64,000 nt of DNA from Rhodomicrobiaceae bacterium (lineage in GTDB: Bacteria; Pseudomonadota; Alphaproteobacteria; Rhizobiales; Rhodomicrobiaceae), in assembly GCA_050330195.1 (NCBI GenBank), contig JBHJOB010000025.1:649-64648 (forward strand). Reading direction: 5' to 3'. Made by a program: the position numbers and the translations under genes. Positions 10,474 through 25,312 of this stretch are shown here, piece by piece; the stretch's first letter is position 1; the number at the start of each line of letters is the position of its first letter. The notes under the pieces were generated by a model that saw only the letters and a list, made by a program, of their open reading frames with translations, did not search any database and was not told where the DNA came from.

Positions 10474-11304
10474 ATGACAGTCAACAAGCGGGATCTGGCG
10501 GCAATGAGAGGCAGAACGTCGAAGCAGGGTTTCAGGAAGTTGCAGGCCGGAGCCCGGCAGGGCAAGCAGCGGCGGGACGCGGATCATGTCCGCATTTACG
10601 GGCTGCACGCCGCGGAGGCCGCGCTCGCCAATCCCCGCCGCGAAATCCGGCACATCCATGCAACGCCGAATGCCGCGCAGCGCCTCTCTGCCGCGCTCCG
10701 CCCCGGCCACCCGCAAATCACACCCGTGATCCCCCGCGATCTCGACCGGATGCTCGGCGGCGACAGCGTGCATCAGGGCGTTCTTATCGAAGCGCAAGCC
10801 CTGCCGGATGTCGGCCTCGCCGATCTTCCCGAGGCGCGGCTGGTGCTGTTCCTCGACCAGATCACCGACCCGCATAATGTCGGCGCGATCCTGCGGACGG
10901 CGGCGGCTTTCGGCGTCGATGCGCTGGTGATGACCGCGCGAAACAGCCCGCCGCTCGATGGCACGCTGGCGAAGGCTGCGTCCGGCGGCCTTGAGCATGT
11001 GCCGGTCGTGCTGGTTCCGAATCTGTCGCGGGCGCTGGCCGAGGCGGAGGAATTGGGCTTTACCCGGATCGGTCTGGACTCTGATGGCGATGGGCTGCTG
11101 GACGAGGCGGAAGCCCCGGAGCGGCTGGCGCTGGTTCTGGGGGCGGAGGATCGGGGACTGCGCCGGTTGACGCGCGAGCATTGCGAACACGTGCTTGCGC
11201 TTCGCACCTTTGGGCCGATTGCCAGCCTCAACGTTTCCAATGCCGCAGCAATTGCGCTTCAGATCATGACGCAGAAAATGCGCCAGCGTTCGCAACCGGC
11301 CTGA
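10474..11304 (+). CDS. TrmH/SpoU-family RNA 2'-O-methyltransferase (RlmB-like)
   Basis: HVRIYGLHAAEAALANP N-terminal substrate-binding-like region and a C-terminal SpoU core (DQITDPHNVGAILRTAAAFGVDALV, LVLGAEDRGLRRLT, SLNVSNAAAIAL). The start is uncertain: ATG 10474 abuts the repeat and has no SD, and ATG 10504 is the alternative. Confidence 0.8.
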   Translation: MTVNKRDLAAMRGRTSKQGFRKLQAGARQGKQRRDADHVRIYGLHAAEAALANPRREIRHIHATPNAAQRLSAALRPGHPQITPVIPRDLDRMLGGDSVHQGVLIEAQALPDVGLADLPEARLVLFLDQITDPHNVGAILRTAAAFGVDALVMTARNSPPLDGTLAKAASGGLEHVPVVLVPNLSRALAEAEELGFTRIGLDSDGDGLLDEAEAPERLALVLGAEDRGLRRLTREHCEHVLALRTFGPIASLNVSNAAAIALQIMTQKMRQRSQPA

Positions 11305-11314
11305 TGGCGGCGCG

Positions 11315-12139
11315 CTACTTCATCGTCTCGTGCATCTGTCTGGCCCACTCCGTATTGTAGCCGAGCCATTTTTTCTCCAGCTCAAGCAGCCGGCCAGCCT
11401 TGTGCCAGTCCCTCACGATTCCGGCGAGGCGCGTTTGCAACTCGGCATTTGCCGCGCCCGGCTGAACGGCAAGCGCCCAGGGGAGCGGGGCGAGTTCCAA
11501 CTCGACGAGATCGTAATCGTCCCATCGCGCGGTCTTGTGGTTTTGCAACTGGTACAGTTCCACGTGCTCTTCCGCCAGAGCCTCGCAGCGACCTTCGGCA
11601 AGGGCCATTGCCGCCTGATGCAGGTCGCGGAATTCGACAAGCTCCGTCTTCGGAGCGTTGGCTGCCAGCAACGGATTGAGATAGCGGTTCAACAAGGTGC
11701 AGATTTTCGCGCCCTCAAGATCGGCGAGCGTTTTGACGCCGGAATCGCGGCGGACGAAAAGGGACGGTGTGCTGGCGTAATAATGGGGCTCGACAAGATG
11801 CGCCTCGCTTTGCCGATGGGCCGTGACCGCAAGCGTCGCGATCAGAAGGTCGAGGCGGCCAAGTCCCAGAAACTGCATCCGGCTCGTGGAGGTCACGGGA
11901 AACAGCTCGATTCCGACGCCGAGTTGGGCGGCAATGTCATTCGCCAGTTCGACTTCCAGGCCGGTCAACTCGCCGTGTTCGTTGCGGAAGCCGAAAGGCG
12001 GCGCGGTATCCTTGACGCCCACAACGATCTTGCCGCGCGCCTTGATTTCAGCGAGCGATCCCGCCGCCGCCATGCCGGCGAGCGAGGCGAAAATGGTGGT
12101 AACAAGTCCCGCCGCAAAGAGCGCTGATCTGCTGAACAT
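11315..12139 (-). CDS. ABC transporter substrate-binding protein, family 3 (polar amino acid type)
   Basis: Track ORF 11315..12208. Start moved to MFSRSALFAAGLVTTIFASLAGMAAAG (signal peptide). GKIVVGVKDTAPPFGF is typical of SBP_bac_3. Confidence 0.8.
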   Translation of the reverse strand: MFSRSALFAAGLVTTIFASLAGMAAAGSLAEIKARGKIVVGVKDTAPPFGFRNEHGELTGLEVELANDIAAQLGVGIELFPVTSTSRMQFLGLGRLDLLIATLAVTAHRQSEAHLVEPHYYASTPSLFVRRDSGVKTLADLEGAKICTLLNRYLNPLLAANAPKTELVEFRDLHQAAMALAEGRCEALAEEHVELYQLQNHKTARWDDYDLVELELAPLPWALAVQPGAANAELQTRLAGIVRDWHKAGRLLELEKKWLGYNTEWARQMHETMK

Positions 12140-17608: not shown

Positions 17609-18934
17609 TCAATTGATCAGGACGACGAAACCGGATTCATCGCTCGTCAGCGGGCCAAGGCCGCCATCGGAAATGATGAGGGACGAGCCCGGAGTGAGCA
17701 GTTTTTCGAGGCGCTCGCGAACGGCGTCGGGAATGGCGATACGGTTCAGCGCACTGCTCGCGGTTTCGTCCGCCGTGGCATCCGCGGTCATCGCAAGCCA
17801 CTTCGCCTTGTTGTCCGATGGCTCAAAGCCGAGCACGGAATAGAGATGGGTGCCGAGCGGCCGTTGCGCATCGAGTATGCTGATGGGCGCGTCGAACAGC
17901 GGATCAAATCCCTGCCTGACGTAAAGATGGCCCGTTGGAGCCGGTCTTTCATTCACCGCCTGATAGAGCGCGTTGATCACGGCCGGGGTCATCTCCCCCG
18001 TGGCCTCGATGCCTTTCGCTTCCTCGAACGCCTTTATCGCGGTCCGGGTCTGCTCTCCCCGGTAGCCGTCGACCGGTCCAGGATCGTAGCCGAGTTTTGC
18101 CAGCAAACGCTGCACGTCCCGGACCCGCTCGGGCCCCTGTCGCTGGGTGATCAGGATGCGCAAGGGCTCCGAGGATTTTTTCGCGTAGAATTTGAGCTGC
18201 TCAAGGTCATATTCCAGATCCGCCATTCGCAGCGACGCCTCTTCGGGCGAGAGCTTTTTCGCAGCGGCCGGGATGTTGTCGTCTTTTCCGGCAGTTGCAG
18301 AGGTCATATCGGAACGGTCCGCTGATCGCACCGGAAGCGGCACCCAATATCTCGCCGGCTTCGTCTTTCTCGTCCAGTTGAGCAGGCCTTCGCGCTCATC
18401 CATGGTGAGAAGCGTCAAGGGGCGCGGCTGCAACAAACCGGGATGTGTGAGCGGGCTGGGCGACGTCTCGTCCTGCGTCACCACGACATGCGCGCCGATA
18501 TTCGTTGTGGAGAACAGTTGCCGCGCGAATTTTCCGGGCAGACGGATGCAGCCGTGAGAAGCCGGATAGCCCGGCACATGGCCCTCATGCAGCGCAATGC
18601 CCGACCATGTCAGCCGTTGCATATAGGGCATGGGCGCATTGCTGTAGATATTGGAGCGGTGCCATTTGCGCTTCTGCAATATGCTGAACACGCCCGCAGG
18701 CGTCCGGTGGCCGGGCTTGCCGGTCGACACGCGGGTCGAGGAAATCCGTTCTGCGCCGCGATAGACATCAAGCCGCTGCTTCTTCAGCGACACGACGATC
18801 TGGAGCGGGTCGGCAGCGCCGCCTTCATCCTTGTCGGTTGAACTATTCGCCGGCGCCGTCTGGGAGGCGAGAACAAGCGTTCCCATCATGAAAACAGCGG
18901 CCATGCGGCCCCCGCATAACGGCAACCACCCCAT
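17609..18934 (-). CDS. L,D-transpeptidase (YkuD domain) with peptidoglycan-binding domain
   Basis: YkuD catalytic motif HEGHVPGYPASHGCIRL, and PG_binding_1-like LLAKLGYDPGPVDGYRGEQTRTAIKAFEE. Confidence 0.85.
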   Translation of the reverse strand: MGWLPLCGGRMAAVFMMGTLVLASQTAPANSSTDKDEGGAADPLQIVVSLKKQRLDVYRGAERISSTRVSTGKPGHRTPAGVFSILQKRKWHRSNIYSNAPMPYMQRLTWSGIALHEGHVPGYPASHGCIRLPGKFARQLFSTTNIGAHVVVTQDETSPSPLTHPGLLQPRPLTLLTMDEREGLLNWTRKTKPARYWVPLPVRSADRSDMTSATAGKDDNIPAAAKKLSPEEASLRMADLEYDLEQLKFYAKKSSEPLRILITQRQGPERVRDVQRLLAKLGYDPGPVDGYRGEQTRTAIKAFEEAKGIEATGEMTPAVINALYQAVNERPAPTGHLYVRQGFDPLFDAPISILDAQRPLGTHLYSVLGFEPSDNKAKWLAMTADATADETASSALNRIAIPDAVRERLEKLLTPGSSLIISDGGLGPLTSDESGFVVLIN

Positions 18935-19412
18935 CCCTGATACTCCTGACTATACTCTTGAACACGACGAAGGGACGTATCAGTACGAGGCCCCCGCTAG
19001 CACCTCGATTATGATAGCCAACGGTTTAGTAGAAATACTAGATGACCAAATGGCTAACAAAATCAACGGCTTAGCACCCAATTTACACCAAGTTTAAGAC
19101 ACTACATCTAAAGAGTCGTTAAAGAGACAAACGCAATTGCAATATGCAGCATAGGCTTGCGAAAGCCAAGTCCCTGCGCTATAAAGCGCACGGCTTAAGT
19201 AGGCATGGAAACTGCCGCAGGATGCGGGTGCCTGCTTGAGCCAGTGAACTGATTTCTTATGAGGACTGCCACATAGGTCGCTTAGAGGCTTCATTCTCTA
19301 GCGGCCGTTTCATCACAGCCTTGGCTTGCTCCAAGGCTAGGCACGTAGTTTGCGCCAACGTGATTGCTCGCAGCAATCGCGATCATGGGTGCATGTCCAA
19401 AGGATCAGTTTC

Positions 19413-19697
19413 ATGCCTACCAAAACCATCCCCCGCGTTCGTCTGAACGATCACCAGCCCGCGAGAGCTCGCAAGAAAATTCCAGCGAAAATTCAGCGTG
19501 TCCGGTTCGACCACACGCCGCACCCTCTCCGTCTGTACCGCATCACCCGGCTGGCGGCCCTGTTGGACGTTCACATCACCACAATCTGGCGATGGGTCCA
19601 AGAAGGCATCCTGCCTCAGCCCATCGAGATCAGTCCCGGCGTCCGAGGCTGGCCTGAGCCTGTGTTAGTCGCCTGGCTCGACAAGCTGCAAGGCTAG
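19413..19697 (+). CDS. alpA: AlpA-family / MerR-like HTH phage transcriptional regulator (excisionase-type)
   Basis: Track ORF 19350..19697. Start placed at MPTKTIPRV (AAGGA upstream). HTH_17-like LYRITRLAALLDVHITTIWRWVQEGILPQPIEISPGVRGWPEPVLVAWL. Confidence 0.7.
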   Translation: MPTKTIPRVRLNDHQPARARKKIPAKIQRVRFDHTPHPLRLYRITRLAALLDVHITTIWRWVQEGILPQPIEISPGVRGWPEPVLVAWLDKLQG

Positions 19698-20057
19698 AGC
19701 GGCGTTCTGACGGACGGACGAGACGAGGGCGGCTGAGATAGCGTAAATCTGCTTCGAGCCGCGCTCAACCCAGCTCGACCAGCTCAACCCCGGTTTCCTG
19801 AGACGGACGGAATGGCATCTTCGCCTATGATCGGCAGGGAGATGAATTTCGTCCGTCATACAGCCAGATGCTGGCGATGAAGGCCCATCCGTGAACGAAT
19901 GAAGAAGAAGTCATCAAGGAAAAAAATTCGCGGCTGCGATTGTCAGCGCAGGGAGCTATAATGCAAAAAGCCCCCAAGTGTCTTGCCGGGCACTTGAGGG
20001 CTCAATACAGAAAACGTACTCAAACCAAAGGGACTTCCCCAACCACAAGGACGCCCA

Positions 20058-20948
20058 ATGAGAAAGCATAATAGCGGCTCGCTGCGTGCTACGCAAGCTG
20101 AGCCAGTCCGCGCCAATCTGCGCTTCGACAAGATCGAGCTTCGCTCGAAACGAAAGCTCACTGATCGGCAGCAATACCTTCTTCAGCGAACCTGTGACAG
20201 CGCAGATTTTGAAATCCGGGGCGCGCCAACGCGAGGCCCAGCAAGTGGCATGAAAGAGTTCGTCCGCATCGTCTCTCCAAATCCGCAAGCGCTCGAATTT
20301 CTGTCATCAAAAAGCTATGTCGTTCCAACGTCCGTCGAGATCGCATTGGACATCCCAACGGAGGATCACCAGCAGGCGATGGAATGGGTCTCATTTTTCG
20401 ACCGACACTTCGCCCAGCGATGGCATGGCAGTAGCCGGTGCCTGCAGATCGGATACGGGACGTACACGAAGCGGAGCGGCAGCGCGCGGCTCTTCGTCTG
20501 GTACGGGGGAAAGAAACCGCTCAAGGGCACCAAGACACCCGGCTTCCATATCGAGTGCCGATTGTCAGGAATAGCAGCCTTGAGGGCGATAGGTATCGAG
20601 ACATCAGCCGACCTGCTGAATTTCGATCACAGAGCTTTCTGGGATAATCACCTAACGTTGTACGAAGTCGACCAAGCGAAGCTGGGGAGGCTCTACAGCA
20701 AACTCTTTCCAGACGACATACCCAGGCCACATGCGCGCTACGACGTGGAGGCTCGACTTGGCAGTCTGGCCATGCATTTCAACTCATATAGGTCGCGCGA
20801 CGAGGACCAGTACAGGGTCAAAGGTCAGCCTACAGAAGATCAGTTCGAATGGCGGGAACCAAAGCTTATGCAGCACTTGGTGGATCGGTTCAGGCATGGC
20901 GATTATCTGCAAAGACTAGCGATTCCCATCTTAACCGGGTTTCGTTAG
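20058..20948 (+). CDS. Hypothetical protein with rolling-circle replication-initiator (Rep_trans-like) motif pattern
   Basis: Three motifs occur in the order expected for Rep_trans-type initiators: VEIALDIP; GYGTYTKRSGSARLFVWYGGKK (Tyr-x-x-Lys context); GFHIECRLSG. Iterons follow immediately. This is motif-level only and was not confirmed by any search. Confidence 0.45.
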   Translation: MRKHNSGSLRATQAEPVRANLRFDKIELRSKRKLTDRQQYLLQRTCDSADFEIRGAPTRGPASGMKEFVRIVSPNPQALEFLSSKSYVVPTSVEIALDIPTEDHQQAMEWVSFFDRHFAQRWHGSSRCLQIGYGTYTKRSGSARLFVWYGGKKPLKGTKTPGFHIECRLSGIAALRAIGIETSADLLNFDHRAFWDNHLTLYEVDQAKLGRLYSKLFPDDIPRPHARYDVEARLGSLAMHFNSYRSRDEDQYRVKGQPTEDQFEWREPKLMQHLVDRFRHGDYLQRLAIPILTGFR

Positions 20949-20975
20949 CATTTTCAGTCGCTTGCGGCTCACGCT

Positions 20976-21127
20976 TATTATGCGTACGAGAAATGAGCTA
21001 GAAACACAAATTATAACGTAACTGGGTACAAGCTAGAAACAAATTATGCGCACGAGAAATGAGAGAAATGAGAGAAATGAGAGGAATGCAAGCTGATCTA
21101 ATTATCATGCGTAAGAGAAATGCTAGA
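20976..21127. repeat. Iteron-like direct repeat array (candidate replication origin / Rep-binding sites)
   Basis: ATTATGCG[T/C]ACGAGAAATGAG at 20977-20997 and 21043-21063, with a degenerate third copy at 21104-21124. AGCTAGAAAC(A)CAAATTAT at 20996-21014 and 21031-21047. Four tandem 9-mers GAGAAATGA at 21054-21089. Confidence 0.8.
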
Positions 21128-21152
21128 TCACCGCCATGCAAATAGATGGTCC

Positions 21153-21189
21153 AAAAAAAAGGTGACAGCTCTCAACCCCAGCTATCACC
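21153..21189 (-). terminator. Rho-independent terminator-like hairpin (or origin hairpin) downstream of the 57-aa ORF
   Basis: On the minus strand: GGTGATAGCT-ggggttgag-AGCTGTCACC followed by T8. The stem is 10 bp with one mismatch. Confidence 0.55.
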
Positions 21190-21219
21190 CTCCTTGTTGT
21201 TGGATACCTAGCGAGATAC

Positions 21220-21393
21220 CTAAGAGGACTTCAAGGTCGAGTCGCGAGCATCGAGTGCTTCAAGCAAGTCCATCATAGTCTCAACCCATTGACATTCGTC
21301 CGTCGGCTGATCGTCAGTCAAGAGATTTGCTTCATCTAGAAGTAGGCCGAGTTCGCGTCGAATCTCTTTCAGGCGTTGGCTGCGTGCGTCCAT
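21220..21393 (-). CDS. Hypothetical small acidic protein (57 aa)
   Basis: Below the track's 60-aa cut-off. Hand translation gives MDARSQRLKEIRRELGLLLDEANLLTDDQPTDECQWVETMMDLLEALDARDSTLKSS. AAGGA lies 9 nt upstream and a terminator hairpin lies downstream. Confidence 0.4.
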   Translation of the reverse strand: MDARSQRLKEIRRELGLLLDEANLLTDDQPTDECQWVETMMDLLEALDARDSTLKSS

Positions 21394-21644
21394 TCCAAAC
21401 TATCCTTGTACAGAACAATCTACATCGCAGCTTAGCGCCAACCTACTAGGTCTAAAAGCGATAACTGTCTGTCAACGGATAAAAATGCTCGGAGTCACCA
21501 ATTGGGAAAAGACGCTGTCAGCCATCGGAACGTTTTACTACGTCAACACTGCAAGGAACGTCTCAGCGGGTTACGGGTGAGTGTTATCTAAAGATGTCAC
21601 TCTTTGTACTGAAGGTTTAAAGAGCAATTTTTGAGGAGTGAGTT

Positions 21645-22136
21645 GTGCACGGATGTGTTTACAGAATTCTCTGTCTAGTGACTGGTAAGGAGTACGTGGG
21701 AGCTACTTCGCTGTCATTGCGCCAACGGCGGTACAACCATCTCTCTGAGGCTCGGAGAAGTATCCATCCAGACTATCCCTTCTACAACGACATCCGAAAG
21801 TATGGTGCAGAGAACTTCGTGTTCAAGGTCATCCGATACCGATCCACTAAAGAGCTACTCTTTGAATCAGAGAGGTACTACATCAGCCAGCTGGATACAA
21901 TTCATCCGTACGGGTACAACCGTAATTCAGGTGGTCAAGGTAGTACTTCTGAAGGGGGTCGGAAGAGTCAGGAAACGAAGCGAAAGCGATACACACCTGA
22001 GGAGATCTCTGAACGATACAGAAAAGGGGCTCAAAAGAGATGGGCAAACATGACACCTGAACAACGAGCTGCGCACATGCAGAAGATGCACGCTGCGAGA
22101 CGAGCAAAGAACGCCAAGCGCGGCCCCTTCCAATGA
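21645..22136 (+). CDS. GIY-YIG nuclease domain protein (free-standing homing-endonuclease-like) with basic C-terminal tail
   Basis: GTG start preceded by GAGGAGTGAGTT. GCVYRILCLVTGKEYVGATSLSLRQRRYNH...YGAENFVFKVI...ESERYYISQL...YGYNRN matches the GIY-YIG motif order (GIY, YIG, Arg, His, Glu, Asn). Confidence 0.75.
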   Translation: MHGCVYRILCLVTGKEYVGATSLSLRQRRYNHLSEARRSIHPDYPFYNDIRKYGAENFVFKVIRYRSTKELLFESERYYISQLDTIHPYGYNRNSGGQGSTSEGGRKSQETKRKRYTPEEISERYRKGAQKRWANMTPEQRAAHMQKMHAARRAKNAKRGPFQ

Positions 22137-22317
22137 TCACGAAAATACCACCGTAGGTAATCTGCCCATAGAAAGATGTAACAGCAAGTCATCAGGTAAA
22201 TCATCTTGTGCATCAAGGATATTTATTTCGTTTTCGTGAATAAATAAAATCTCCGGTCTCTCGAAATCTTAAGTTTTCTATAATGCTTCAAGAGTAGAAT
22301 AGCGAACGAGCAGTGCT

Positions 22318-22545
22318 ATGCGTAGCGACGATCCGGTTGATGAATCCAAAGAACTGCCCCACGAATTCCTCGCCCGCGTCGCCAAGGGCGGAATGGTCAA
22401 AGGAAAGCGTCCTTGCAAAACGCATCAATTGGAGGCGGCAGAGCACGTTCGCGCCTTCACAGAGCCTGTCTTCAATCCATTCGGAGTTGGGAGCACTTCA
22501 GCGCTCAAGCAAGCGATCGCTGAGCACAGGCGCATGAAACGATGA
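22318..22545 (+). CDS. Hypothetical protein (75 aa)
   Basis: ORF downstream of an AT-rich region containing TATAAT (22279-22284). No recognisable motif. Confidence 0.35.
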   Translation: MRSDDPVDESKELPHEFLARVAKGGMVKGKRPCKTHQLEAAEHVRAFTEPVFNPFGVGSTSALKQAIAEHRRMKR

Positions 22546-22726
22546 GGGCGAGCGCGGCAACAGGGCAGCCCGTAGCGCAGACGCTGCGAGCGCCGCACGA
22601 GCGCTGGCGAGACGGGCAGTGGCCCCTATGCTGGTACCAGAAACAGCTTCCGGCCGTGACAGCGCCCCTATCGCGGTCAGATCGCAGCCGAGAAATTGCG
22701 AAATTTATGAAAGTGAGGAAATTTCG

Positions 22727-23437
22727 ATGACACAGAAAAAAGCAGCCACGCCCCGAGTGAGACTGAGCGGCCCGCCAGACACCTCCCCTGTCGTCACACG
22801 CGGACCGATTCTGCGACCCGGACAATCCGGAGCGACGCTGCGCATTCAAGGTGATGTTCAGAAGCTCCAAGCGCGCTTGAATGGCGTTGAGGAAAAGATC
22901 AAAGCGAGTGAAGGCGAGCAGGAGCGCTTGGCCTATGAAATGTCAACCGTCTCCAATGCTGACGCTCGCAAGAAGGAGCTGAAGATCGACCGGTTGGACA
23001 AGGTCATCGCCGATCTGAAAAAGCAGCGTGTACGAACTGCTCAAGCTCTTAAGGGAGCGAAGCAGCAGCTTGCGGACCAGCGCGAAGCTGAAGCAAGAGC
23101 CAAGCGGGACGCGCTCGTTGCGCACACCAAGCAAGTCATCGTGACCGAGCTGAAACATCTCCCCGGCTTGGCTAAGCGAGATCTCGTTGGTTATGATCGG
23201 GAAGATCGGAGCATGGAACGTCTCCATGGTGCCATCCACGGCAGACTTCCTGAACAAGACGACCGGCAGGTCGCAGTGCTCAAGCGGCAGATCGAGAACT
23301 ATTCCAAAGCGCTCCTCGCGATTGATGAAGGTCGTATGCTGATCAGGCCCGACGATACCGTCTGCACCTTCATGTCTCAGCTCAGCCAGCGGCTCGCTGT
23401 CGCTGAAAATGTGACTGTCCTTGAGGGAGCCGCATAA
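22727..23437 (+). CDS. Hypothetical coiled-coil protein (236 aa)
   Basis: In frame with track ORF 22619..23437. Start placed at MTQKKAATPRV (GAGGAAATTTCG upstream). Long heptad-like charged segment: KLQARLNGVEEKIKASEGEQERLAYEM...ADLKKQRVRTAQALKGAKQQLADQREAEARAKRD. Confidence 0.55.
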   Translation: MTQKKAATPRVRLSGPPDTSPVVTRGPILRPGQSGATLRIQGDVQKLQARLNGVEEKIKASEGEQERLAYEMSTVSNADARKKELKIDRLDKVIADLKKQRVRTAQALKGAKQQLADQREAEARAKRDALVAHTKQVIVTELKHLPGLAKRDLVGYDREDRSMERLHGAIHGRLPEQDDRQVAVLKRQIENYSKALLAIDEGRMLIRPDDTVCTFMSQLSQRLAVAENVTVLEGAA

Positions 23438-23568
23438 TGAGCCTCGCCAGAGATAATGCTGTCGCCTTGCTCAGCCTCGACCCCACGATGTCGAAAGCGC
23501 AGCGCCGCAACCACTGAGGGAGCGGCAGTTGCATGGCTGCGCGGCTCAGAGAAGGCTGGGAGTTGAGG

Positions 23569-24789
23569 TTAAGGATACCTGTTGTATACGCCCTTCACCC
23601 CGCCCAGCTTATGGGCAAGGCAGCGCTCGACAATTGAATCATCAACACCGAGTGAATTCATCATGGTGCTGGCTGTTCGGCGCAAGTCCCTGAACTGCCA
23701 CGCTGGCACCTTATGCCCGAGGACAGCACTCATCTTCTTGTCGAGGACGAGCTTCGTGGTTGCCCAGCCATTGTAAGGTTTGATTCCATCGGTGCTGAAA
23801 ACGAAGTCAGCAGCCCGCCGACCAGCATCAATGATTGGAACCGAATTGATCAGCTCCAAGGTGAATGGCGTCAAGGGCACGAACGAAACCTGTTTATTTT
23901 TAGGATCACCGTCCTCGCGCGCATCCCATATGCCGTTCTCGATTTGACTGCGCCGCATATGTCCAACCTTGTAGAAGCGTTGGGCGGTGAGCAGCGCTAC
24001 TCGAATGCAAGCGCCAGCCATCCCCATCTCTTCTGTCGCTTTCCACATGGCCTTGATCTCGTCGTAGCTCATCACCCGATTGCGCTCGCCCGCTGACCAG
24101 CTCTTGTTGTACATGCCCTCAACGATAGGCGACACGTAATCATCCGAGGGAGAACGGTTAGCGGCAAACCATCTAAAAAGGCTTCTGATCTGTTGGTGAA
24201 CGATGCCCGCGACGTTCGGCGTACCGTAGGTCTTTCCGTTCCGTTCGACCTTGCCCTTGGCAATCCGTTGCAGCAGCGCAGCGACTTCCGAACGCTTGAT
24301 TTCCTCAAGCCTGCGCTCCTTCCATTCTGGCTCGATGTAGATTGATATGATGCGGCGGGTCTCGGCCTCGCTCTTCTTCCCTGTCAGCATCTCATCGCAA
24401 TAGGCGGCGATGAGTTCGGCAGCATCGTTCTTCACCTTCGGCTTCTTCGGATCTTCACCGACCTTGGCAGCGTTACGGATATTAGAGCAGCGAGTACGAA
24501 CAGCTTCGATGTCGCCGCAATCAAGCTCGTGAAGCTCACCGTACACGTCTCGGTAGTAGACCGTTTCGCCGTACCGGCCGATCTTCGTGTATCGAGGAAA
24601 GCCAGGACGGCTCGGCAAGTAGTAGCAAGCTTGAAAGGTGACGGTGGCATCGGTCCTGTGTTGGGCTCCGGGAGAGTGCAGTATGCACAGGCCCGTCTGC
24701 TTGGCGTCCCAGATGGTGACCTGCTTCTCTGGCTTCTCTCGAAGCAGCTTATCTAGAAATGGCTTGGTGAATTTGACTGCATTCGGCAT
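23569..24789 (-). CDS. int: Tyrosine recombinase / phage integrase (P4-like, with N-terminal arm-binding DUF4102-type domain)
   Basis: C-terminal catalytic signature WQFRDLRRTASTMMNSLGVDDSIVERCLAHKLGGVKGVYNRY (R...HxxR...Y). N-terminal KFTKPFLDKL...TIWDAKQTGLCIL is typical of this integrase class. Confidence 0.9.
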   Translation of the reverse strand: MPNAVKFTKPFLDKLLREKPEKQVTIWDAKQTGLCILHSPGAQHRTDATVTFQACYYLPSRPGFPRYTKIGRYGETVYYRDVYGELHELDCGDIEAVRTRCSNIRNAAKVGEDPKKPKVKNDAAELIAAYCDEMLTGKKSEAETRRIISIYIEPEWKERRLEEIKRSEVAALLQRIAKGKVERNGKTYGTPNVAGIVHQQIRSLFRWFAANRSPSDDYVSPIVEGMYNKSWSAGERNRVMSYDEIKAMWKATEEMGMAGACIRVALLTAQRFYKVGHMRRSQIENGIWDAREDGDPKNKQVSFVPLTPFTLELINSVPIIDAGRRAADFVFSTDGIKPYNGWATTKLVLDKKMSAVLGHKVPAWQFRDLRRTASTMMNSLGVDDSIVERCLAHKLGGVKGVYNRYP

Positions 24790-25024
24790 CTGTCCCCCAT
24801 CTCAATAGGCACTAACCACCTTGAGATTGTATTTAAAATGCGATGCAATCGAAGTAAATGTATATGATACTGAAAAACCTAGGTTTTCTGAGAAATCGCA
24901 ATCCTATCAAATGCCATAAAATAGCGTCCTCCCCACCGGTTTGCCGGGAAGATCCTATGACAAGGTGAACACCTTATCGTGAACAGCCGGGTTGAGCAGC
25001 GGCAATGTTGCGCCAGTGCCGCCG

Positions 25025-25312
25025 TCACCGTCCGCCGCATTGCACGACGCAGCGGCGCACGCAAATCTGGAATTGCGTCCGGCAGCTTCCTGCATTCTCC
25101 CCCGATGCAAGGCACGCCGATTGCGCTGACCGGCACTGCGCCATGCAGCTCTGGGCGCAAGCGTTGCCGGAACGCTGTGCAAGACGCGGCAGCTTGGTGA
25201 AATTTTCCTCCAGATCCGCCGCACGCCCGACACCGGCAAATTCCACGCAAAGCGTCAGCCCCAGCACGGCTGCAAGCGCGCAAATGCACGATTTCTGGAT
25301 CACATCCGGCAT
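25025..25312 (-). CDS. Small secreted Cys-rich protein (95 aa precursor, 8 Cys in the predicted mature part)
   Basis: In frame with track ORF 25025..25342. ATG 25312 is preceded by GAGGGAGGCGCGG. Signal peptide-like MPDVIQKSCICALAAVLGLTLCVEFAGVGRA. Mature Cys pattern is C-x3-C-x3-C-x6-C-x9-C-x6-C-x3-C-x3-C, with high GC3. Confidence 0.6.
   Translation of the reverse strand: MPDVIQKSCICALAAVLGLTLCVEFAGVGRAADLEENFTKLPRLAQRSGNACAQSCMAQCRSAQSACLASGENAGSCRTQFQICVRRCVVQCGGR

Follow-up and report, generated by a model that had tools for sequence, protein, structure and literature searches.

The window analysed here, a 64,000-nt stretch of contig JBHJOB010000025.1 from a Rhodomicrobiaceae bacterium (assembly GCA_050330195.1), contains an islet of about 6.0 kb that is horizontally acquired DNA. 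Its content is best explained by a functional core consisting of a P4-type tyrosine integrase, an AlpA-like helix-turn-helix (HTH) protein and a 296-aa Rep_trans-like nicking/initiator protein encoded beside iterons, to which a GIY-YIG homing endonuclease and orphan open reading frames (ORFs) have been added as cargo or later invaders. We put at roughly 55% the probability that this is an integrative element built to excise, to amplify as a circle and to rely on another element for its transfer. The copy in the window is most likely grounded and immobile. The islet and its core features are located in the window as follows:

18940..24925: low-GC islet, 6.0 kb, defined by composition
19413..19697 (+): AlpA-like HTH, 94 aa, putative excision activator or excisionase (HTH_17, phrog_66)
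20058..20948 (+): Rep_trans-like protein, 296 aa, putative rolling-circle initiator/nickase (predicted fold and conserved residues)
20977..21124 (+): iteron array, putative origin/Rep-binding site (three 21-nt repeats and a tandem 9-mer array)
23569..24789 (-): P4-type tyrosine integrase, 406 aa (phrog_1)

Composition of the Islet and Its Recombination Genes

An earlier reading of the window, made from the sequence only, had placed a compositional drop at about 18940-24960, with a tyrosine integrase at one end and an AlpA-type HTH at the other, and all of this was borne out. Taken as a whole, the islet has a GC content of 0.530, compared with 0.613 in the remaining sequence, and lies more than 6 standard deviations below the 231 other 6-kb windows (mean 0.613, standard deviation 0.013, minimum 0.580). 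Between approximately 18,900 and 25,000 the GC content is 0.45-0.58, in the flanks it is 0.61-0.66, and the lowest-GC bins contain the AT-rich rows named in that reading. GC at third codon positions is also lower, at 0.53-0.66 in the islet genes and 0.72 in the AlpA-like gene, compared with 0.69-0.81 in the flanking genes. The boundaries of the islet were set by composition alone.

The AlpA-like HTH was recognized by phrog_66 ("excisionase and transcriptional regulator", E-value = 8.6e-8) and by Pfam HTH_17 (E-value = 5.2e-5) with 23.9 bits, under the cut-off of 27. Gene callers report the same 94-aa form in other assemblies, and the protein is 32-33% identical to small HTH ORFs upstream of rep in the related contigs L087 and L095. 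The integrase was assigned by phrog_1 (E-value = 1e-26), while its PF00589 score of 26.8 bits lies just below the cut-off of 27.1.

The 296-aa Rep-Like Protein

Searches of Pfam, PHROGs, NCBIfam, PADLOC and PDB sequences gave no match for the 296-aa protein. A word-seeded search recovered three relatives only and a pattern scan of metagenomes for family relatives one short contig, while a profile search of 1.84 billion cluster representatives reached 1,070 at E<=1e-3, of which 423 also passed E<=1e-10. All family members with a retrieved source name are "hypothetical" or unnamed, and none of the 66 that were examined matches any Pfam or PHROG family. With the alignment of 66 sequences AlphaFold2 (AF2) gave a model with pLDDT 87 and pTM 0.85; a first model, from three sequences, was unusable (pLDDT 52.8). 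The model divides the protein into a predicted catalytic domain at about residues 17-205, with a crescent-shaped beta-sheet like that of the TATA-box-binding protein (TBP), and a predicted helical C-terminal domain at about residues 206-296. Foldseek placed four chains of 4cij (RepSTK1) on top of the PDB matches (E-value = 7.5e-5 to 1.5e-4, probability 1.0), followed by TBPs, and TBP is the only other fold with the sheet topology of Rep_trans according to the authors of the Rep_trans structure (PMC4797284). Among the predicted viral structures in BFVD, replication proteins of Inoviridae matched best (E-value = 3e-6 to 6e-5; annotated as "GST REP" or "Replication-associated protein G2P"), and the matches include A0A345MNV4, which carries PF02486 (PMC13107129).

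Residue conservation was counted across 163 family members. Tyr149 is present in 162/162 and Glu166 (E/D) likewise in 162/162, followed by Glu94 (E/D, 156/160), Asp98 (D/E, 153/161) and Asp24 (131/136); His164, Arg168 and Lys156 are nearly invariant and H123 is conserved too. In the AF2 model Y149, D24, E94 and E166 are found on four different strands of the sheet, and along the sequence the order is Asp (strand 1), ExAxD (E94), Tyr and HxExR (E166). The Rep_trans active site of RepD/RepDE consists of D46, RxDxAxD (D142), Y191 and RxE (E214), where three carboxylates on separate strands hold the metal beside the nucleophilic tyrosine (PMC4797284). The predicted catalytic layout of the family thus parallels that of Rep_trans, with one tyrosine and three acidic residues in the same order. 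Around the tyrosine the family motif is (R/N)xxxxYGDRPSK, compared with RxYxK in Rep_trans. Rolling-circle Rep-like motifs had been claimed for this protein from its sequence; only the predicted fold and the conserved residues support the designation "Rep-like", and the classical HUH motif set is absent.

Comparison with the 83%-identical relative in L001 gave a ratio of nonsynonymous to synonymous substitution rates (dN/dS) of 0.12 for rep, so the gene is under purifying selection. Two other assignments were rejected. A winged-helix, iteron-type theta initiator (RepA/Rep_3) would agree with the iterons, but the predicted fold is Rep_trans/TBP-like. Membership of the YfjJ/YagK "inovirus Gp2-like" group (PF11726/PF23343) found no Pfam match, and hhalign against YfjJ gave a probability of 0.1.

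Repeats Downstream of rep

An iteron array directly after rep had also been proposed, and it was recovered: 21-nt iterons are located at 20977, 21043 and 21104, the first beginning 29 nt past the rep stop codon, and their 19-mer core occurs three times against 0.02 expected by chance. The same region contains a tandem array of the 9-mer GAGAAATGA (3.9 copies, 21054-21088). In L082 (GCA_964606445.1), a second assembly of this organism, the array has two extra GAGAAATGA units (18 nt), which is the sole difference between its islet and the copy in the window. Two Logan contigs from SRR3311145 (L083/L085) break within the GAGAAATGA array and overlap there by exactly 30 nt. The closest relative, L001, carries two tandem 21-22-nt repeats of related sequence, TTATTAACGWATTAGAGAAAT, at the same place after rep, and L096 has two repeats of about 20 nt directly after rep; in more distant relatives no obvious repeats were seen after the gene. 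We infer that the repeats are the Rep-binding part of a putative origin. Additionally, the iteron array is bracketed by a 15-nt inverted repeat, GCATGGCGATTATCT (20894-20908) and AGATCACCGCCATGC (21125-21139), which is 87% complementary and has one arm within the 3' end of rep.

Recurrence of the Module

A search for recurring int-alpA-rep modules, suggested in the earlier reading, found the trio in unrelated metagenomic contigs. The genomic contexts of eight independent relatives were read, and in 6/8 of them a P4-type integrase, an AlpA-like HTH and the Rep occur together. The contexts, listed by contig, are:

L087-L090: integrase (Arm-DNA-bind_3 + Phage_integrase), 163 aa, HTH_17, 125 aa, Rep
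L091: integrase, 123 aa, HTH_17, Rep
L095: integrase, 117 aa, AlpA-like 72 aa, 90 aa, Rep
L096/L097: integrase, HTH_17, 122 aa, 67 aa, Rep
L092/L093: 94-aa ORF then Rep, at the edge of host genes as in the window
two further contigs: small ORFs upstream of Rep

In L087-L090, L091, L095 and L096/L097 int and rep have the same orientation and lie no more than about 2 kb apart, with an HTH_17 or AlpA-like ORF between them. Int, the AlpA-like gene and rep are the only genes common to the islet and the elements of the relatives. As the trio recurs while the remaining genes differ, it constitutes a conserved mobile module with variable cargo. No coupling protein or type IV secretion system (T4SS) gene was found near any of the eight contexts. 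In L087 a terminase large subunit (TerL) gene is located about 1.5 kb downstream of rep (phrog_2, E-value = 7.5e-30; Pfam TerL_ATPase over the cut-off), and a second context, the JGI contig of P0163, has a TerL_ATPase-like gene near rep.

Two of these contigs have further features. At 9947-14239 of L087, and also in L088-L090, a 153-aa ORF overlaps the start of the gene for the 504-aa TerL and four unassigned ORFs come after it; no recognisable capsid or portal gene was seen in this stretch, which seems an unusual combination for an element of 9-10 kb. In the 11.35-kb Logan contig L095, positions 1-90 and 11264-11353 are parts of one tRNA gene with 14 nt in common, GATTCGAACCAGCG; the right end carries the T-arm and the acceptor (...GGAGCCA) on the minus strand. 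The arrangement points either to integration targeted to the 3' end of a tRNA gene or to a circular or repeat-bounded assembly.

Proposed Mechanism

On the preferred reading, in which the element excises, amplifies as a circle and depends on another element for transfer, Int and the AlpA-like protein would excise it as a circle. The helical C-terminal domain of Rep would then bind the repeats just downstream of rep, and the protein would nick one strand through Tyr149, with a metal held by D24, E94 and E166. This nick would start rolling-circle amplification of the excised circle, and the amplified DNA, possibly concatemeric, would hitch a ride for its transfer. Transfer by another element is proposed because the module has no transfer genes of its own. 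Phage packaging would be the more likely route because a terminase-like gene is located close to the module in two relatives, and it is also favoured by the homing endonuclease described below; conjugative mobilisation is allowed by the Rep_trans fold.

The Integrase and the State of This Copy

The earlier reading had said that a disrupted integrase, or a block fixed at one locus in all relatives without att repeats or an empty site, would speak against an undescribed mobile system. The first of these was found and the second in part, with no att repeats and no empty site recovered. The integrase has the catalytic R, H/R, H and Y, and the protein ends ...GVYNRYP*, only 4 residues past Tyr402. 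Its nine closest homologues (43-56% identity) all carry on with DYLxEKRxAFxxLAxLIERIV..., and the 85/85 homologues that reach the tyrosine extend 15-80 residues beyond it (median about 38). DNA past the stop codon codes nothing similar in frame, and in the other frames tblastn found only fragments that are not significant (E-value = 0.3-1.1). It follows that a rearrangement, rather than a recent point mutation, removed the tail. A peptide at 23412-23508 on the minus strand, RRCAFD...LARLIMRLPQG, which is in another frame than the integrase and bears a faint likeness to the lost tail (EKRxAFxxLAxLIERIVxPPxG), was tried as its remnant and rejected, since a tail hidden Markov model (HMM) scored it at 1.3 bits and 18/500 shuffles were equal or better. 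In lambda Int, Cre and XerCD the segment past the catalytic tyrosine packs on the adjacent protomer, and strands are not exchanged in a coordinated way without it. Since tyrosine recombinases need this segment, the islet integrase is probably recombination-defective. With the post-tyrosine segment lost and no att duplication detectable, the islet copy is most likely grounded, while a new integrative replicon module stays a fair reading of the undescribed mobile system that had been proposed.

Several results weigh against the reading of the islet as an excising and replicating element, whose excision, circles and replication we infer from its genes. The integrase of this copy may be non-functional, by analogy with the recombinases named above. 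The two ends of the islet have no exact match of >=9 nt in common, direct or inverted, although cores of <9 bp are possible; 7- and 8-mers common to both are at or below chance, and arm-type repeats common to both were not found. Neither a tRNA nor a tmRNA target was found at the borders. The islet is established at the identical site in all four assemblies, which are all of one organism. No empty site was found, either by exact-protein look-ups of the flank genes, which returned only the three other assemblies of the same organism, all with the islet, or by a scan of 185,579 species genomes for the L,D-transpeptidase encoded beside it, where the best matches were 44% identical and not syntenic, none having an ABC-F neighbour, so that relatives close enough to reveal such a site were not available. 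At the putative origin, the region 20940-21200 folds no better than shuffles (z -0.04) and contains no significant hairpin, and Rep_trans origins usually contain a nick-site hairpin. Concerning Rep itself, the Pfam Rep_trans HMM (PF02486) matches 0/66 family members at E<=0.01, and hhalign of the family profile against pT181 RepC gave a probability of 0.25, which is not significant, so the relation to Rep_trans is visible by structure only; the Foldseek TM-score against 4cij is 0.39-0.43. Finally, searches of 72,556 plasmids (PLSDB), 50,697 phages (INPHARED) and IMG/VR recovered no member of the family at the sensitivity used, an odd absence for a replicon initiator and one that gives no support to a virion-borne lifestyle.

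Alternative Explanations

The same gene set can be read as a phage satellite, in which a helper phage would induce excision and replication and the DNA would be packaged in helper capsids, like PICMI, PICI or P4. The combination of integrase, AlpA-like and replication genes within about 6 kb parallels the int, alpA and prim of PICMI (PMC10803314), relatives of the module adjoin a terminase large subunit gene, the cargo includes a homing endonuclease of phage type, and rolling-circle concatemers would suit headful packaging. However, genes for a primase, terS, sid/psu, ppi and capsid remodelling are all missing from the islet, fis is not beside it, nothing links it to a helper phage, no prophage or helper is present within the window, and no family member was found in IMG/VR or INPHARED at the sensitivity used. 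We therefore regard the satellite as unlikely, and with a truncated integrase and no visible att an active minimalist satellite is an unlikely description of this copy. Absence from plasmid and phage collections fits a chromosomal hitcher, namely an integrative mobilizable element (IME), whose 296-aa protein would be a MOBT-type relaxase and whose repeats would be the oriT, with a co-resident conjugative element supplying the mating pore. Proteins of the Rep_trans fold are indeed relaxases of Firmicutes IMEs and integrative and conjugative elements (PMC6499999, PMC7563843, PMC5704250), and a small element with int and a nickase and no transfer genes is what would be expected of an IME. In the retrieved literature, though, MOBT relaxases come from Firmicutes, and Pfam scans of the islet and the 66 family members gave no match to a recognised relaxase (MOB) family. 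As the eight contexts lack a coupling protein or T4SS gene near the module and two of them carry a terminase-like gene instead, an IME seems rather unlikely.

The truncated integrase, the missing att and the location fixed in all assemblies would also be expected of an inert remnant of an old island, where the 296-aa protein would not be a nickase at all but might, for instance, regulate transcription as a TBP-like DNA-binding protein whose operator is the repeats. TBPs are the second-best fold matches and the sequence link to Rep_trans is undetectable. Nevertheless, an invariant tyrosine and three conserved acidic residues on the concave sheet would be needless if the protein did no more than bind DNA, purifying selection acts on rep, and the family is persistently linked to integrases in diverse contexts, which makes this explanation distinctly improbable. 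A decayed integrated filamentous (inovirus-like) prophage would account for the small size, for a replication protein of rolling-circle type and for the Inoviridae replication proteins as best viral structural matches. It is highly improbable, given that neither a morphogenesis ATPase of Zot/pI type nor small hydrophobic coat proteins were found, that 0 islet ORFs match inovirus PHROGs and that the relatives carry a terminase of tailed-phage type.

Cargo, Borders and Flanking Genes

The remaining features of the islet are the following:

18935..19412: left end, non-coding, AT-rich (GC 0.485-0.515)
21220..21393 (-): orphan ORF, 57 aa, called in other assemblies
21645..22136 (+): GIY-YIG nuclease, free-standing homing-endonuclease type, 163 aa (PF01541, TIGR01453)
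22318..22545 (+): orphan ORF, 75 aa, called in other assemblies, with a marginal phrog_25697 match (E-value = 0.006)
22727..23437 (+): coiled-coil protein, 236 aa; this form is called in L082, the longest ORF starting at 22619 (272 aa)
24790..24925: right end, AT-rich, upstream of int (GC about 0.50)

The free-standing GIY-YIG nuclease and the orphan ORFs reported in the earlier reading are present, as are the absences that it noted: no islet match to capsid, terminase, conjugation or transposase genes was obtained in Pfam, PHROGs, NCBIfam or PADLOC. The nuclease was matched by PF01541 (30.9 bits), TIGR01453 (E-value = 6.9e-19), phrog_314 (E-value = 1.2e-24) and the PADLOC HEase model (E-value = 5e-8), and homing endonucleases with 30-34% identity to it occur in 172 phage records. 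By these matches it is grouped with the free-standing or intron-associated homing endonucleases. Its gene is located in the lowest-GC segment of the islet (local GC 0.45-0.49); this segment, 21000-22400, also includes the 57-aa ORF, and its GC compared with 0.54-0.60 elsewhere in the islet suggests a separate, later, nested acquisition. The nuclease is probably a secondary invader or cargo. For the coiled-coil protein only weak coiled-coil-type matches were obtained (SMC/JetC and phrog_530, E-value about 0.002-0.006) and no phage match by tblastn, and the 57-aa ORF has no family match in Pfam, PHROGs or NCBIfam. Concerning defence cargo, only homing-endonuclease models of PADLOC match in the islet.

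The islet is flanked by an L,D-transpeptidase gene on one side and a Cys-rich/ABC-F pair on the other. Its left edge adjoins the L,D-transpeptidase start codon (18934), and its right edge precedes a weak hairpin/T-run downstream of the Cys-rich gene. Had the element once been mobile, the left end (18935..19412) would hold attL and promoters and the right end (24790..24925) the int promoter and attR. Scans for promoter and terminator consensus sequences gave no more matches than shuffled sequence would, and no Rfam RNA matched at either border. Low-GC DNA starts a few bases from the L,D-transpeptidase start codon (18934-19100), so that either the promoter of this gene is inside the foreign sequence or the real left border is located to the right of the compositional one. 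The Cys-rich 95-aa protein (25025-25312, minus strand) is encoded directly downstream of the ABC-F gene and is called as a gene in three other assemblies; it has no family match in Pfam, PHROGs or NCBIfam.

Significance

A wider interpretation, which we offer as tentative, is that the 296-aa protein belongs to a large branch of Rep_trans invisible at the sequence level (>=1,070 clusters at 50% identity, unnamed). It would define a new class of tyrosine-integrase-borne rolling-circle integrative replicons (int, AlpA-like HTH, Rep and iterons), some with their own TerL, which would point to a new satellite-like lineage outside P4, PICI, PLE and PICMI. If the reading is true, a widespread and wholly unannotated family of replication initiators/nickases would be added to bacterial mobile elements, paralleling Rep-Arvir in archaea, and a minimal three-gene integrative replicon unseen by current satellite, IME and plasmid finders would give environmental bacteria, the Rhodomicrobiaceae host among them, a hidden path for gene flow. 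A family profile would allow the annotation of thousands of "hypothetical" islets. The locus in the window, probably a grounded copy, is chiefly useful as a seed sequence, the family being the valuable part.

Comparison with Known Systems

The architecture of P4-like elements, PICI or the minimalist islands of Vibrionaceae had been ascribed to the islet, and this did not hold when the gene-content definitions were applied: no primase, sid, psu, terS or ppi was found, and no fis beside the islet. Like PICMI (Vibrionaceae; PMC10803314), the islet is about 6 kb long, combines an integrase and an AlpA-type regulator with one replication gene and a few unknown or cargo genes, and has no packaging or capsid genes. 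In the MacSyFinder model of the PICMI authors, co-localised int, alpA and prim are mandatory and fis adjacency is optional (PMC10803314). The islet has int and an AlpA-like gene, but its replication gene codes for a Rep_trans-like protein and no primase was found in Pfam, PHROGs or NCBIfam, so membership was rejected. Furthermore, PICMI integrate next to fis and the islet does not, the islet integrase is truncated, and helper dependence has been demonstrated for PICMI, whereas the islet is known here from its genes. Membership of the P4-like elements was likewise rejected, as only int and the AlpA-like gene are present among int, alpA, psu, delta, sid, alpha and epsilon, and so was that of PICI, with no primase, terS or morphogenesis matches.

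Integrated elements with their own replication initiator are a second group for comparison. Comparable int-xis-rep modules are found in the pSAM2-type elements of actinomycetes. SGI1 is an integrated island with int, an excision factor and its own Rep and origin, and its excised circle replicates transiently (PMC7433901). The Rep family of the islet differs from both, since SGI1 has a RepA with an iteron oriV and pSAM2 the HUH-type RepSA, and these elements carry mobilisation or Tra functions that the islet does not have. The int-alpA-YfjJ/YagK islands (CP4-57 of E. coli and the tmRNA islands of Pseudomonas) also have no transfer genes, and one of them is transduced by a jumbo phage (PMC12595487). 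They present the same order of a P4-type integrase, alpA and a putative initiator-like protein of rolling-circle type. However, YfjJ is a YagK_YfjJ_C/REP_ORF2-G2P protein unrelated to the 296-aa family, and these islands are larger and insert at tmRNA.

Concerning the initiator, the Rep_trans (PF02486) initiators and MOBT relaxases (RepC/RepD of pT181-family plasmids, RepSTK1 and RstA of CTXphi) have the same crescent TBP-like beta-sheet as is predicted here, the predicted arrangement of one tyrosine and three acidic residues, each borne by its own strand, follows their sequence order (PMC4797284), and the helical C-terminal domain of the 296-aa protein could confer origin specificity. The 296-aa family differs from them in having no detectable sequence or profile similarity and in the additional conservation of H123, H164 and R168; its gene is followed by direct repeats with no obvious nick-site hairpin, and it is found on integrase-bearing chromosomal islets, with no member recovered from plasmids or phages at the sensitivity used. 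A precedent is Rep-Arvir/RepSNJ2 (DUF7845) of archaeal pleolipoviruses, described in 2026, whose relation to Rep_trans is visible only by structure (PMC13107129). Rep-Arvir also matched the BFVD protein A0A345MNV4, has an invariant tyrosine and three acidic residues, and is encoded, with a cis element following rep, on an integrase-bearing temperate element (SNJ2) (PMC13107129). In contrast, the 296-aa protein is bacterial, about half the size, without the winged HTH or the extra C-terminal domain, the 296-aa family has no match to Pfam DUF7845, and the downstream element is a conserved hairpin in Rep-Arvir and iterons in the islet. The islet resembles the PICMI, SGI1/int-xis-rep, int-alpA-Gp2-like and SNJ2 systems in function and belongs to none of them: it lacks the genes that define P4, PICI and PICMI, PF02486 gives no match and YfjJ is unrelated. 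Its architecture of a recombinase, an excision regulator and a replication initiator is familiar, and what is new is the unannotated Rep_trans-like family.

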